A stretch of 64,000 nucleotides of DNA from Acidobacteriota bacterium (GCA_004356805.1 SMXW01000045.1:20216-84215); one strand, 5' to 3'. Numbered from the stretch's first letter, positions 313-40,734 are shown. Notes: generated from the letters alone by a model not told the origin. Made by a program: numbers and translations.

Positions 313-999
313 ATGGAGTCGGTCCTTTCGATTGTCGCGGCCGTCGCCGCAAGTCTTTTCGCATTTGATCTTTGGAAGGACTATCGCTTGCGTCCAAGGC
401 CGCACGTTGCGGCATATGGCACAGGCATGACCATGTTTGCCGTCGCCACATGGGCGTTGTTCATCGGTGTCACCTTCTCTTGGACAGGGCCCATCTACCG
501 CACCTTCTTCCTGTTTGGCGCCGTTCTCAACATCCCATTTCTGGCCCTCGGCTCGATGTTCCTGGTGGTCGGGAAGCGCTCCGGTCATGTGATGACAGTT
601 GCTCTTGGGGCATTCACCGCCTTCGCCACGACTCTCACCCTGACCGTGCCCTTCCAGCGCCCTCTGCCAGACGGCGGCATCCCGCACGCACGCGACATGT
701 TCGAGGGCGGATTCGGACCCCGACTGTTCGCCTTGATCGGCGGAGCGGTGGGAGTGACGATCCTGATCTTTCTAGCTCTGGTCAGTCTCGTTCGCTTCTG
801 GAATAAGGACCGGAGCATCGTCTGGGGGAACGCACTGATCCTGGCGGGGACACTGTCGGCGGCGTGGGGCGGCACGCGTCTGGCTCTTGGGGATACGAGT
901 GGATTCACCCTCTCCCTTCTCATCGCCGTGACACTCATATGGGCCGGTTACCGAGTCGCCGCTGGCCGTCTTCGTATGGGTCGCGATCTGCGAGCCTGA
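313..999 (+). CDS. hypothetical polytopic membrane protein (about 6 TM)
   Basis: 228-aa ORF with multiple hydrophobic helices and coding-like composition. No recognisable motif. Confidence 0.45.
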   Translation: MESVLSIVAAVAASLFAFDLWKDYRLRPRPHVAAYGTGMTMFAVATWALFIGVTFSWTGPIYRTFFLFGAVLNIPFLALGSMFLVVGKRSGHVMTVALGAFTAFATTLTLTVPFQRPLPDGGIPHARDMFEGGFGPRLFALIGGAVGVTILIFLALVSLVRFWNKDRSIVWGNALILAGTLSAAWGGTRLALGDTSGFTLSLLIAVTLIWAGYRVAAGRLRMGRDLRA

Positions 1000-1111
1000 G
1001 GTTGTTAGAACCGGATACGGGCCGTACAACCTGAGGTTCGCCCTTACCGGGTACGTGACCCACAGCCTGAGGTTGTTAGAACCGGATACGGGCCGTACAA
1101 CCTGAGGTTCG
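995..1111. repeat. tandem direct repeat (2 x 46 bp, period 71 bp), each unit an AGGTTGT-N20-ACAACCT stem-loop
   Basis: cctgaggttgttagaaccggatacgggccgtacaacctgaggttcg occurs at 995-1040 and 1066-1111, between convergent genes (the membrane CDS ends at 999; the moaA stop is at 1116). Confidence 0.6.
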
Positions 1112-2634: not shown

Positions 2635-3816
2635 TCAGGCCTGATTCGGCATTTCAGGTTTGACTTGCCAACTGAGGTACCACCCACCCAGCCCCAGTGG
2701 CAACACGATCAGCGGGATCAGCCATCCCACGATCGGCAGCATCCAGAGGATGCCCACCACCGCAGATCCGGCGAGAACAGCCCCAAAGATCTCGAGCTTC
2801 CTGAACAGCACTCCACCGACCCTGCCGACTGTGGGGATGCCTGCCACCAGCGACGCTGCAAAAACCACTCCGACAGCCGCCAGAACCACGGGTCCGAGGA
2901 TGATGAGCAAGGGAAAGCTCGCCGAAGGTGGAGCGAGAGTGAACAGCAGCGCTCCGATAGCCACCAGGAACAAGGGCGATGCCATGACCACAGCTCCGAG
3001 CAACCACGCCCTCATAGGTGACACTTTCACTTTTTCAATGGCCGCGACGGTCCGAGACGGCCATACCCACGCCGTGCTGAGAGCGGCAATCGTCAGCAAG
3101 AGAACCACAAAGAACCTTCCGAACAGAACGAGCGCCCTGACCCTGATATTGGGTGGCAGCGGTGTCTTGTGCACCACAACCCCGCCCACGTTGGCCATCT
3201 CCAGGCCCTGCGCCGCGGACTCGGACCGGTAGCCGAGATCTCCGGACACCGTCAGATCGTCGACGACGGTCAGCTGCCCGACCGAGACGTCGACATCATT
3301 CTCAACCGAACCGGCGATTGCCAGAGTTCGTTGACTGCCCTCCAGATCCTTTCCAATGTGACCAAGTGCCTCCATGTCGAGCACCCAGGCCAGCACGTCG
3401 CCACCAACTGAAGAGCTTTCTGCAAGCCGGACATCCAGGGCTGTCACCACGATGTCTCTGCCGACGCTCCCGTTCACGACAAGCGATCTCGCAATCACCC
3501 GGAGTGCTCCACCGACCGACCCGTTGATCGTCACCCTGGGAGCCACCGCTGTCACCGAGCCGGTGACCGTCCCCTCTAGGACGACCTCCTCCGCGGCAAC
3601 GGCGATCAAGTCCCCATCGATCTCGCCATCGATCGACACCTTGATCGCTCCCGCGTAGAGATCGTCCTCGAGAAGGTCGCCGGGCCGAATGATGACGAAC
3701 TCAGAGTTCGCGGTCTCTGCCGCCTGTACCGGTGTTGTCGCTCCGACAAGGACAACCCCCGCGGCCAAGCCGAAGAGGAGAGGCCTAAAGCGAAAAGGCA
3801 TCAGCCGCCAGGTCAA
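2635..3816 (-). CDS. bactofilin-like (polymer-forming beta-helix repeat) protein with signal peptide and C-terminal 5-TM domain
   Basis: N-terminal signal/TM segment. Repeated G-x-V-x-G/D-D beta-helix units (GSVGGALRV.. GSVGRDIVV.. GDVLAWVLD..), then hydrophobic helices. The start overlaps the nuoN stop by 32 nt. Confidence 0.5.
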   Translation of the reverse strand: MTWRLMPFRFRPLLFGLAAGVVLVGATTPVQAAETANSEFVIIRPGDLLEDDLYAGAIKVSIDGEIDGDLIAVAAEEVVLEGTVTGSVTAVAPRVTINGSVGGALRVIARSLVVNGSVGRDIVVTALDVRLAESSSVGGDVLAWVLDMEALGHIGKDLEGSQRTLAIAGSVENDVDVSVGQLTVVDDLTVSGDLGYRSESAAQGLEMANVGGVVVHKTPLPPNIRVRALVLFGRFFVVLLLTIAALSTAWVWPSRTVAAIEKVKVSPMRAWLLGAVVMASPLFLVAIGALLFTLAPPSASFPLLIILGPVVLAAVGVVFAASLVAGIPTVGRVGGVLFRKLEIFGAVLAGSAVVGILWMLPIVGWLIPLIVLPLGLGGWYLSWQVKPEMPNQA

Positions 3817-37284: not shown

Positions 37285-37815
37285 TCAGCCGGGGACCGTC
37301 GCCTCGCCCTGCTCGCTCCGGTAGCGGTCGACTATCTCATTCTGGAGGGTGTCGATCGCCGAGTGGAGTTGCTTACGCTGGTTGGACATCTCGGTCTCAA
37401 CCTCATGAAGCCGATCCAGGGCCTCCCTGATCTCGTCGTCAGACAAGTCCGGAAGTTGGGTGAGAACACCGTCGTCCATGATCTTGTCGATCAGTCGGCG
37501 CCCGGTCTTCGAGGGAATCGGCGGCATGATCTCGATGCGTTTCAGGTTGGGTTCCTCGCCGAAGACCATTCCACTGGCGAGGATCTCGGGCAATGCCTCG
37601 AGCAGGGTCCGCTCCTCTTCCCCGCCACGACGACGCAACTCGAAATTGAGAAGATCCATCCGCCCGTGGAGCAGACGGCGGTAGTACGAAATTTGAGACT
37701 CGACGTCCTCAGCGGTGTGGCGTCTTTGTCTCAGTTCCTTCAACTCGAGCCCGGACAGGTTGCCCGCGTACTCATCCTCGAGGACGATGTCGATGCGGCG
37801 ACGCTTGTCGTTCAC
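37285..37815 (-). CDS. coiled-coil regulatory-type protein (hypothetical)
   Basis: 176 aa with two long charged helices. No enzymatic motif. Confidence 0.4.
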   Translation of the reverse strand: MNDKRRRIDIVLEDEYAGNLSGLELKELRQRRHTAEDVESQISYYRRLLHGRMDLLNFELRRRGGEEERTLLEALPEILASGMVFGEEPNLKRIEIMPPIPSKTGRRLIDKIMDDGVLTQLPDLSDDEIREALDRLHEVETEMSNQRKQLHSAIDTLQNEIVDRYRSEQGEATVPG

Positions 37816-37824
37816 GCCGCCAGG

Positions 37825-38916
37825 TTACTTGCAGGCTCCGGCCAGGGTGGGATAGGGGTTCACCGCTGCTCCGCCCCTTCCGCCGGGATGGAGCTCGAAG
37901 TGGACGTGAGGGCTGCTGCCCGTGGCATTGCCACTAGCGCCGTTGAAGGCAATTGTTTGTCCTTGACTCACGCTTTGGCCGCTGGAGACATTCCATCCGG
38001 CTAAGTGGGCGTAATAGTAGGCGACACCGTTGTTGGCTGTCAGCCAGACCGTCTTTCCCCCCAGACCCCGGTTGCCCACCCAGACAGTTCCTGATGCAAC
38101 CGCATAAACCGGCTCATTGAATGCAGCAAACAAGTCGGTCCCCTTGTGTGACCTGCCACCTGAGCGTGGCGCGCCCCACGTGTCTCGGAAAGACGTCCGG
38201 CCCGGGGTCATGGGGCAGATGAACGGCCCGACCTGAACCGAACCGGCAGCACGCTGGCGAACCGCCTGACGGGCCGCCGCCTGCTCGATCTCGTATTGCT
38301 TTTGCAGCTCTTTGCATCGTCCGCTCAGCTTTGCATAGGAAGCCTGCTCACGCTCCATCGCCCCTTCCTGGATGCCCCTGAACTCGAAGGCTTGGTCTTC
38401 TGCGATCTTGAGGGCATCGTGGTTCTCATCCAGCTCCTCCTGGAAACGGCCAAGCTCACCTTTGGCAGCGATCAGGTCGTTGATCGATTCTTTTCCACCA
38501 ACAGTTGCGGTACTGAGGAACTCTGACGTCGTCAGGAACTCGTCTACCGAGGAGGCGCTGAGAATGATGCCTGGGTTAGAGAAGCCCCCCAACATGTAGA
38601 GCTGGACCGCCTGCTCTTCGATCCTCTCTTGGTTAGCGACGAGATCCTCAGAATGGCTGTCGACCGATCCCTGGATCCGACGTTGCTTGCCCTCGAGAGT
38701 GTCGACCTCAACCAGAACACCCTCATATTTGAGTGCGGCATCATCGAAGTCGGCACGGGCCAGCCTGTACTCGGTGAGTTGCTCGCGGGAGTCCTCACAG
38801 GCCGCATCGACCTGTGACCTTGTGACCGCATAGATGGGCAGCGGGAATAGAGAAGCCACCAGCGCGACCAGGGTGATGAGCAGAAGAGCGCGATAATGCG
38901 CCTTCAGGGCAATCAT
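37825..38916 (-). CDS. M23 family metallopeptidase with N-terminal coiled coil (secreted)
   Basis: Signal peptide [23 protein letters not shown]. Long coiled coil. C-terminal LytM/M23 domain with HxxxD and HVHFE motifs. Confidence 0.75.
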
Positions 38917-39259: not shown

Positions 39260-40255
39260 CTAGAGAATCACTTGGATCAACGGGTAGTAGATCGCAGCCG
39301 CAAGAACGACACCATCCAGAGCCGTCAGGACGCCGGGAGAGCGCTCGGTGAGCGTCACTCGTCCCGTCCGCAGCATCGAGGACAAACCGTGCCCAGCGAC
39401 CAACGCCACGGCAACACCGAGACCCACCAAGAGATAACCAGCGACATCAAGGTCCCAGAAGGCCGCGGCACCTACGGCCGCCAAAACTGCTGTGATGGCC
39501 GTCGTGGAAAACGGATCGAGGAATGGGATAGCCGGCATCCGGACCACCAGGGCACCAAGCAAGACGCCAACAACCACTGCAACAAGGAATACATCCACTG
39601 CACTGTCGTCAGGCGAGAAGCTTGATCGGGACAGGACCATCGACCCGGTCGCCAGACCTGCAAGCAGGCTGACAAGCAGTGTTGGGGCGTAGACATCGAC
39701 GGTGCGATAGTCGGCAAATACCACTGACCAGCCAAGCACAACCGCCACGGCAAACGCCACCGTGAGGCCATACCCGGCACCGCCAAGGATATGAGCCGAG
39801 AGAGCGCCCGCAGCCGCGGTGGTCGTAATGGCCAGAGGGGACAGCAGGCGACCTCGCGCGGCAAACGCTGCAGATAGATCGAGCGCCCATGCGGCGGCGA
39901 TCGCCACCAGCGCCGCCGCCCAGATCTCCTGGCTTTGGGTGTTGGCGAAAACGCCCACGATCAGAACGCTGAGCGGCAGATATACCAGCAGGTCGACGAG
40001 GGCGAGTGTTGCCGGTTGGCTGCCTCCAGAGACGGGAGGCAGTAGAACTACTTCGTCGGACTCGATCACGGAGTCCTCCAATGCTGCCTCCTCACCATTG
40101 AGCCACACCCGAGATGTCTCAACAACGCTCTCGAAATCGGGCCCGAACTTCTCATTGGCCCTGTCTATGACACCGCCAACGGTCGCCGCGGGGATGTCGA
40201 CCCGGGCGGTCCCGGCGATCTCGCGAAGGCTTGCGAACAGTCGAAGCTTGGCCAT
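39260..40255 (-). CDS. MoaD/ThiS-like beta-grasp domain (ending VSGG) fused in frame to an Ala/Leu-rich membrane domain of about 8 TM
   Basis: MAKLRLFASLREIAGTARVDIP...WLNGEEAALEDSVIESDEVVLLPPVSGG matches the MoaD pattern, including the terminal GG. The reading frame continues without a stop into SQPATLALVDLLVYLPLSV... The upstream 88 codons of the ORF call are Arg-rich and not coding. Confidence 0.55.
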   Translation of the reverse strand: MAKLRLFASLREIAGTARVDIPAATVGGVIDRANEKFGPDFESVVETSRVWLNGEEAALEDSVIESDEVVLLPPVSGGSQPATLALVDLLVYLPLSVLIVGVFANTQSQEIWAAALVAIAAAWALDLSAAFAARGRLLSPLAITTTAAAGALSAHILGGAGYGLTVAFAVAVVLGWSVVFADYRTVDVYAPTLLVSLLAGLATGSMVLSRSSFSPDDSAVDVFLVAVVVGVLLGALVVRMPAIPFLDPFSTTAITAVLAAVGAAAFWDLDVAGYLLVGLGVAVALVAGHGLSSMLRTGRVTLTERSPGVLTALDGVVLAAAIYYPLIQVIL

Positions 40256-40314: not shown

Positions 40315-40734
40315 ATGGACGAAGCACCATTTGTCGCCGTTGACGTCCCGCTTCTCGGCCACGAGCGTCACAAGAACTGGGCGAAAGTGGTTGACTCTGT
40401 CGACACCAACAAGTCTTCCGGGTGGGCCTACGACGGCGCATTCGTAAGTGTTGGAGGCATCCAGGATGTACCGGTCGGATCGGTCCTCCTCGTCTACGGG
40501 GAGAAGGGATCCAGGGCAAACCCTCAGATTCTCGCCCGTGTCTACACCGTCAACGCCGACTCCACCCTCACCCATGAAGCCGAGGCCAAGGGAAAGGCCT
40601 GGGCCAGGACCTTGCGCGACCCGATCGAGCGGTGCCTCGGAATGGAGCGCGACACGCCCGACTTGTCCTATTTGTCAGATGAGATGCTCGCGGACGAGAT
40701 GCGTGCCAGAGGATGGAAGGTGGAGCGGCCGTGA
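40315..40734 (+). CDS. hypothetical protein
   Basis: About 139 aa. Coding-like composition. No motif recognised. Start uncertain. Confidence 0.35.
   Translation: MDEAPFVAVDVPLLGHERHKNWAKVVDSVDTNKSSGWAYDGAFVSVGGIQDVPVGSVLLVYGEKGSRANPQILARVYTVNADSTLTHEAEAKGKAWARTLRDPIERCLGMERDTPDLSYLSDEMLADEMRARGWKVERP

Follow-up and report, generated by a model that had tools for sequence, protein, structure and literature searches.

What does a ubiquitin-like protein of the sulfur-carrier type gain from being built into a membrane protein, with its Gly-Gly motif in the interior of the polypeptide? MoaD/ThiS-type prokaryotic ubiquitin-like proteins are soluble sulfur carriers and, in archaea, protein modifiers. 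The question is raised by a gene in a 64,000 nt stretch of DNA (hereafter the window; GCA_004356805.1, SMXW01000045.1:20216-84215) filed under an Acidobacteriota bacterium. A first-pass annotation, made from the sequence alone, had described the gene as a MoaD/ThiS-type beta-grasp domain with a Gly-Gly motif, fused in frame to a polytopic membrane domain, and had left a processed precursor, a membrane-tethered module and a lost stop codon as explanations. The ORF, a Pfam ThiS match and AlphaFold2 (AF2) modelling all bore out that architecture. The Gly-Gly lies at residues 77-78 of 331 and not at the C-terminus of the primary translation product, and after it the reading frame stays open, without a stop, through 253 more residues. 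The annotated end of the MoaD part, VLLPPVSGG, was right, but its extent of residues 1-85 was too long, the Gly-Gly being encoded at 40022-40027. The features of the gene are as follows.

39260..40255, minus strand: whole fusion ORF, 331 aa plus stop (39260-39262), from reading of the ORF; relatives are also 331 aa
40022..40255, minus strand: MoaD/ThiS/SAMP1-type beta-grasp domain, residues 1-78, ending VLLPPVSGG (Pfam, NCBIfam, Foldseek)
40022..40027, minus strand: codons of Gly77-Gly78, putative processing or activation site (family conservation)
40001..40021, minus strand: linker, residues 79-85, SQPATLA (AF2 and family alignments)
39263..40000, minus strand: nine-helix membrane domain, residues 86-331, predicted N-in/C-out (AF2, loop Lys/Arg counts, hhalign)
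39878..39889, minus strand: W123-x-x-D126 motif in transmembrane helix 2, family-invariant (family alignments)
39308..39397, minus strand: C-terminal signature AG(R/H)xxGSxxRxGxVxLxxxxPGxLxxLDG, residues 287-316 (concordant hhalign registers)

The start codon is the ATG at 40255 on the minus strand; a mechanically called ORF reaches further 5′, to a TTG at 40519, and the homologues are 331 aa long and begin MAKLRLF.

The gene is a genuine fusion, fixed across a whole clade of Acidimicrobiia. Contigs in 105 blocks of the assembly collection, drawn from NCBI and several independent ENA samples, encode exactly this 331 aa protein. A word-index search returned 489 relatives, the best 120 of which are 326-365 aa long, 66-99% identical and from metagenome-assembled genomes (MAGs) of Acidimicrobiia/Actinomycetota; the database name of the protein is ‘MoaD/ThiS family protein’. 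When the membrane domain was searched exhaustively by itself, only 92 clusters at 50% identity emerged; nearly all the full-length ones measure 310-345 aa, and in these the match begins near residue 90-100. The search for such fusions in related genomes, which the first-pass annotation had proposed, produced 167 full-length members, every one of which carries the Gly-Gly motif before the membrane domain (PPVSGG in 165, PPVAGG in two). PPV[S/A]GG and the membrane domain stay together even where membrane-domain identity has fallen to about 28%, and the motif is still invariant among these members although their beta-grasp domains have diverged to 38% identity. Because the conservation falls on both halves, it indicates that both are under purifying selection.

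An assembly or sequencing artefact, or a recent pseudogenising stop loss, has a negligible chance of accounting for these observations. What speaks for it is the a priori oddity of the architecture only, together with one relative in which the gene is split and a database entry that appears to be frameshifted. In the split form (L090:152-1163), an 80 aa MoaD ends PPVSGGDR and is followed by two stops; 4 nt further on, in the +1 frame, the membrane ORF opens with a GTG. Either the gene is really split here, or the single Logan contig that shows it contains a frameshift. The database entry, P0414, had been taken as a fusion of MoaD to the L26 family introduced below, and was dropped as a probable frameshifted gene call. 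Against an artefact stand the identical ORF in independent assemblies and the full-length homologues of 325-345 aa across the 92 clusters, with both halves conserved; the 105 assembly blocks and the 167 of 167 relatives fused with the Gly-Gly in place refute the lost stop codon.

The N-terminal half was assigned by profile and by fold. Residues 5-78 match Pfam ThiS (PF02597) with an E-value of 3e-7 and 31.3 bits, against a gathering cut-off of 22.5, and 44 of 51 diverse family members match the same profile. Equivalog level was not reached for NCBIfam moaD (41.5 against 66.15 bits for TIGR01682 and 14.8 against 94 for NF008347) or for SAMP1 (NF041918, 35.9 bits against a cut-off of 60), and the match to moaD_arch was likewise under its cut-off. 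Foldseek comparison of the AF2 model with the PDB retrieved, as its best matches, Haloferax volcanii SAMP1 (3po0; 40% identity, TM-score TMt 0.70) and Escherichia coli MoaD (1fm0_D; TMt 0.77), along with other MoaD and sulfur-carrier chains; the SAMP1 and MoaD chains spanned TMt 0.70-0.78 at probability 1.00. The beta-grasp domain belongs to the ThiS/MoaD family, below equivalog level for MoaD or SAMP1. It shares with MoaD/SAMP1 (PF02597) both the fold and the signature FAxLRE..G, WxNG, DE and PPVSGG, whereas it differs from them in having its Gly-Gly internal, with 253 residues after it, and in the company of its gene, whose linkage is with genes for a membrane protein, an M23 peptidase and RsiG, and not with moaE, moeB or moaA.

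Most orthologues of the domain are not fused at all. A scan with the family alignment of one genome per GTDB species gave 80 loci, with 12 full fusions and 64 free-standing proteins of at most 100 aa, mostly 78-81 aa. The free-standing proteins are 50-60% identical to the window’s domain and lie at the same locus; 28 of the 64 stop exactly at PPVSGG, and the other 36 bear 1-21 extra, non-conserved residues. Fused and free domains have conserved positions in common (F7, A8, R11, E12, G15, G38, F41, W51, N53, G54, D67, E68 and PPVSGG) and differ consistently only at positions 10 and 44; the regular expression that picked sequences for this comparison demanded the Gly-Gly, so that the conservation of the Gly-Gly itself is to be read from the 167-member tally alone.

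After the Gly-Gly comes a short linker that varies in sequence and length across the family alignments. In the AF2 full-length model (pLDDT 85, pTM 0.71; five models ranged from pLDDT 55 to 85), residues 75-84 have pLDDT below 50 and are modelled as disordered. The membrane domain modelled by itself reached pLDDT 94 and pTM 0.91, with nine predicted helices where the first-pass annotation had counted about eight. Lysine and arginine residues in the loops, counted from the sequence, number seven on one side and one on the other, a bias that puts the beta-grasp domain on the cytoplasmic side together with the even-numbered loops, and the C-terminus on the outer side. The beta-grasp domain is therefore predicted to be cytoplasmic, about seven residues from the membrane surface, and to sit beside a conserved, cytoplasm-facing site of the membrane domain. 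The invariant residues of the membrane family (W123-x-x-D126, R184, D247, G288, R296, G308 and D314) all lie on the predicted cytoplasmic face.

No recognisable family had been seen in the membrane domain, and in direct searches this still holds: there was no match at threshold in Pfam, in NCBIfam or in a profile search against PDB sequences, and Foldseek searches of the PDB with the full-length and the pLDDT 94 membrane-only models gave no credible fold for the membrane domain (best E-value 0.69, root-mean-square deviation (rmsd) above 14 Å). It does not hold for remote comparison, which leads to a CdsA-like family through an intermediate that we call L26. At 17 of the free-standing MoaD loci, the next gene encodes an approximately 290 aa polytopic protein of this family (for example L026:10280-11212; others are in L017, L022, L024, L035, L043 and L079). 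L26 proteins have the invariant motifs YExGD, EGP and ALRRLDS, and lack an equivalent of Asp219 of CdsA. Although mostly unnamed or called ‘hypothetical protein’ in their sources, some of their relatives are named cytidylyltransferase or CDP-diglyceride synthetase, and precomputed matches to PF01148 are listed for about half of 120 relatives in databases. Four of ten L26 members matched Pfam CTP_transf_1 over almost the whole profile, with E-values of 4.5e-5 to 7e-3 and a best score of 23.8 bits against a cut-off of 24. The window’s membrane family in turn aligned with L26 in hhalign at 95.4% probability (E-value 1.8e-8, 254 columns) and, in a second comparison, at 93.9% (E-value 1.6e-7, 216 columns), whereas reversed and block-shuffled controls gave 0.2-3.2%.

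In the hhalign register, the C-terminal signature of the window’s family falls on LGQxxAS...APALRRLDS of L26 and on GDLTESMFKR...PGHGGILDRIDS of CdsA. The structure of TmCdsA has nine transmembrane helices, a periplasmic C-terminus, an Asp219-Asp249 metal-binding dyad and the accessory residues Lys167, Lys226, Asp144 and Asp246 (PMC4083444). By that numbering, D314-G315 of the fusion corresponds to Asp249-Gly250 and R296 to Lys226, whereas Asp219 is replaced by H/R289, the Asp246 position is also non-acidic, and the Asp144 and Lys167 regions of CdsA have no conserved counterpart in the window’s membrane family. The likeness to CdsA comprises nine predicted helices, a C-terminus predicted to lie outside, a polar site predicted to face the cytoplasm and a C-terminal signature in register, with homology argued by way of L26. 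The membrane domain appears to be a strongly diverged protein of the CdsA (CTP_transf_1) superfamily, a placement that is remote and transitive. It is unlikely to make CDP-diacylglycerol, because the Asp219 and Asp246 positions are non-acidic and the Asp144 and Lys167 regions are without counterpart. An intramembrane protease was also considered and set aside: whether as rhomboid, as site-2 protease with an LDG motif or as presenilin-type enzyme with two aspartates, the domain offers, on reading of its alignments, no conserved HExxH, no rightly ordered Ser/His pair and no GxGD.

The gene neighbourhood shows how the two halves came together. Across the 80 genomes the recurring order is a MoaD-like gene, optionally a CdsA-like membrane protein, optionally an M23 peptidase, an RsiG anti-sigma factor and a GT4 glycosyltransferase. 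The MoaD-like gene is followed directly by rsiG and then GT4 in 34 loci (including three MoaD::RsiG fusions and the locus L031), an L26-type membrane gene stands between MoaD and rsiG in ten loci and six partial ones, and the window-type fusion is found in 12, with the M23 gene next in the 11 that are long enough to show it. In about 75 of the 80 species, MoaD has the gene for RsiG or for the membrane protein as its neighbour. More than 30 species show translational coupling of the MoaD-like gene with rsiG, and at about 25 loci the MoaD stop codon overlaps the rsiG ATG (...GG-X-X-TGA over ATGA; e.g. L020, L021, L038 and L051). The RsiG literature that we searched does not mention a MoaD neighbour. 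Three MAGs encode in-frame MoaD::RsiG fusions of 241 aa in which PPVSGG is kept (L037:4252-4977, L060:6361-7086 and L061:1924-2649); an earlier reading of these proteins as MoaD-MoaE was wrong, the partner being RsiG. At L031:10001-11692 an open MoaD frame of 563 codons runs through an L26-type membrane gene that is read in another frame, and on into rsiG; the probable cause is a frameshift, or else GC-rich DNA that happens to lack stops.

Since sister Acidimicrobiia encode a free MoaD followed by a homologous membrane gene at the shared locus, the fusion is shown, as judged from gene order and homology, to have arisen in one lineage by the joining of two genes that stand side by side in a locus conserved among Acidimicrobiia. 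The first-pass annotation had held that separate moaD and membrane genes in orthologues would speak against a true fusion. Separate genes do exist, in the sister lineages and in the split form, but with the fused form fixed throughout the clade they account for how the fusion arose and do not refute it.

In the window itself, the neighbours of the fusion are the M23 peptidase, RsiG and asparaginase II genes, and no ESX genes are among them. The three features flanking the fusion that bear on its context are the following.

37825..38916, minus strand: coiled-coil M23 metallopeptidase, secreted or anchored, with HxxxD and HxH present (Pfam Peptidase_M23, E-value 7e-23)
37285..37815, minus strand: RsiG-like anti-sigma factor gene, the conserved end of the locus (Pfam RsiG, E-value 6e-25)
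40315..40734, plus strand: divergent 139 aa ORF with no Pfam match, doubtful as a member of the system (conserved in closer relatives)

A tblastn search with the window’s M23 peptidase placed its gene directly downstream of the fusion in all 13 loci with enough flanking sequence, and M23 identity drops in step with that of the fusion. The divergent ORF (139-148 aa) is adjacent down to approximately 40% identity (L001-L007), lies about 3 kb off in L008 and is not adjacent in more distant relatives. The gene belongs to a MoaD-like/membrane protein/M23/RsiG locus and not to the molybdenum-cofactor genes. In some relatives a crcB fluoride-channel gene lies on the opposite strand between the fusion and the M23 gene (L001:10993-11355, L002:2832-3194 and L088:788-973).

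Our data are consistent with a model in which the fusion is a precursor that is cleaved after Gly78. We hold this model tentatively, at a little short of an even chance, and base it on sequence conservation and on precedents. The fusion product would insert with its beta-grasp domain in the cytoplasm, close to the membrane; a peptidase encoded elsewhere, by analogy of the JAMM/Mec+ type, would cut after Gly78 and free a MoaD-like protein with an unblocked Gly-Gly carboxylate, whilst the CdsA-like protein would stay in the membrane. An E1 enzyme of the MoeB/MoeZ type, also encoded elsewhere, could then activate the freed carboxylate. Cleavage is favoured because the fused forms keep the Gly-Gly and the whole MoaD signature over deep divergence, because the same MoaD has joined two unrelated downstream partners with the Gly-Gly kept both times, and because the linker that follows is variable and modelled as disordered. 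Free orthologues that end at or just after the Gly-Gly point to chemistry at the carboxylate, and the tails on 36 of the 64 mean that C-terminal trimming must already occur in the class, if the Gly-Gly is chemically used. Precedents for such cleavage are Mycobacterium tuberculosis MoaX, a MoaD-MoaE fusion cut after its Gly-Gly, and the ubiquitin fusion precursors; QbsE-GGCF is trimmed by the JAMM protein QbsD, and MoeZ and Mec+ are encoded elsewhere in other actinobacteria. As with MoaX and QbsE/QbsD, a MoaD-type protein would be made with a fusion or extension that is removed to expose the Gly-Gly. In contrast to MoaX, the partner here is a nine-helix membrane protein and not MoaE, the cleavage is one that we infer, and no JAMM gene is adjacent. 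The downstream M23 peptidase, a member of a family of Gly-Gly endopeptidases, was rejected as the processing enzyme: its signal or anchor makes it extracytoplasmic, and Gly77-Gly78 is predicted to be cytoplasmic. If the fusion is cleaved, it would be a bacterial counterpart of the ubiquitin-fusion precursors, and would point to a processing peptidase.

Several observations weigh against the precursor model and the CdsA-like nature of its membrane partner. No JAMM/MPN+ (JAB), E1 (ThiF/MoeB), MoaE or rhodanese gene was called within 10 kb on either side of the MoaD-like gene at any locus examined, and tblastn with E. coli MoaE and MoeB found nothing in the window, in agreement with the first-pass statement that moaE, moeB and JAMM genes are absent nearby. 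That the fused partners come from one operon is just as compatible with a Rosetta-stone interpretation, in which fusion marks a stable physical association. Forms of the membrane protein exist that have no MoaD (247-266 aa; P0168/L089:390-1190 and P0194) and that still lie upstream of M23, which suggests that the membrane protein can work without the beta-grasp domain; in these forms the start adjoins or overlaps a gene for a MaoC-type dehydratase, and in the P0194 contig RsiG also follows. The link to CdsA, finally, is transitive only, by way of L26: the window protein has no match to PF01148, three of 51 relatives match it weakly (best E-value 0.42), Foldseek returned no CdsA-like match, and direct hhalign comparison with E. 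coli-type CdsA gave 0.2% (0.2-15% over comparisons), with a shallow profile whose CdsA alignment held only relatives at least 77% identical.

The main rival, somewhat less likely than the precursor, is that the protein is never cleaved, and that the MoaD-like domain is a permanently tethered cytoplasmic adaptor or regulatory domain of the CdsA-like protein, with the Gly-Gly as a mere hinge; such a domain might bring RsiG, or some other partner, to the membrane. A survey of prokaryotic ubiquitin-like beta-grasp proteins lists YukD-TM as the sole membrane fusion, and provides in EccD of the ESX (type VII) system a precedent that is likewise actinobacterial and likewise carries an N-terminal cytoplasmic beta-grasp on a polytopic domain (Iyer et al. 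2006, PMC1779556). In Foldseek, the one structure that matched our model over its full-length architecture was ESX-3 EccD, though at an rmsd of about 15 Å. The membrane domain of EccD has 11-12 transmembrane helices against nine in the fusion, and neither half is homologous beyond the beta-grasp fold (6sgx_B, rmsd 14.6 Å, TM-score 0.2). Translational coupling of MoaD to rsiG in more than 30 species and the three MoaD::RsiG fusions fit a stable complex, and the lack of a protease or E1 gene within 10 kb and the MoaD-less membrane proteins also favour an uncleaved tether. However, a hinge does not account for PPV[S/A]GG in 167 of 167 members whose beta-grasp domains have diverged to 38% identity, and the Gly-Gly is not known to be kept in EccD/YukD-type domains. 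The 28 of 64 free orthologues that end exactly at the Gly-Gly point to carboxylate chemistry, and AF2 gave no confident docking of the two domains on each other (pTM 0.91 for the membrane domain alone but 0.71 for the whole protein, whose five models had pLDDT 55-85). Were the fusion uncleaved, a MoaD fold with an intact Gly-Gly would have been reused as a membrane-proximal adaptor.

The domain might instead be the working molybdopterin MoaD of the organism, the fusion being a neutral accident that is tolerated through processing which exposes the Gly-Gly, with no function shared between the halves. We consider this unlikely. The domain does bear the full MoaD signature, a molybdopterin oxidoreductase gene lies near the fusion in the relative L001, and moaA, which the first-pass annotation had correctly placed at 1116-2150 and unlinked to the fusion (Radical_SAM and Mob_synth_C), is not followed by a moaD in the window, nor does a second MoaD occur within these 64 kb. 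However, two Acidimicrobiales genomes (L071 and L082) carry a distinct, canonical moaE-moeA-moaA-moaD cluster, which reveals a separate molybdopterin-type MoaD lineage in the class, and at 41.5 bits the fused domain falls below the NCBIfam moaD equivalog cut-off of 66. An accident is also hard to reconcile with the place by rsiG or the membrane gene that is kept in about 75 of 80 species, and with the approximately 25 loci that overlap the rsiG start. A far more ambitious proposal, which we regard as a long shot, is a membrane-associated ubiquitin-like system tied to the RsiG/sigma-WhiG switch, in which an enzyme descended from a lipid nucleotidyltransferase would work, at the membrane surface, on the carboxylate of the Gly-Gly, and the output would feed M23 wall remodelling and anti-sigma control. 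Within such a system the carboxylate might be nucleotidylated instead of, or alongside, activation by an E1, it might be joined to a lipid or envelope precursor in the manner of Atg8, or a MoaD thiocarboxylate might thiolate a membrane-bound intermediate.

Whichever of these applies, a whole bacterial class keeps a MoaD-like protein beside, or fused to, an apparently CdsA-derived membrane protein and an anti-sigma factor, and preserves the Gly-Gly in fusions to two different downstream partners. The fusion thus provides a testable entry into an uncharacterised conserved locus of MoaD-like, CdsA-like, M23 and RsiG proteins, and a membrane domain that is unannotated in databases gains a putative placement in a superfamily.

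Some minor observations concern sequences away from the fusion. Just downstream of moaA, window positions 995-1109 hold a 35 bp tandem repeat of 3.3 copies with 70% match. Near moaA and a gene for an Mrp/Nuo-type antiporter subunit, a 393 aa ORF at 2635-3816 on the minus strand contains a bactofilin domain (E-value 1.4e-6). Look-ups of exact protein sequences from elsewhere in the window gave no recorded entry. Among the other contigs, L085:1-2301 encodes a ribonucleotide reductase with an intein and a LAGLIDADG endonuclease, according to precomputed Pfam matches.

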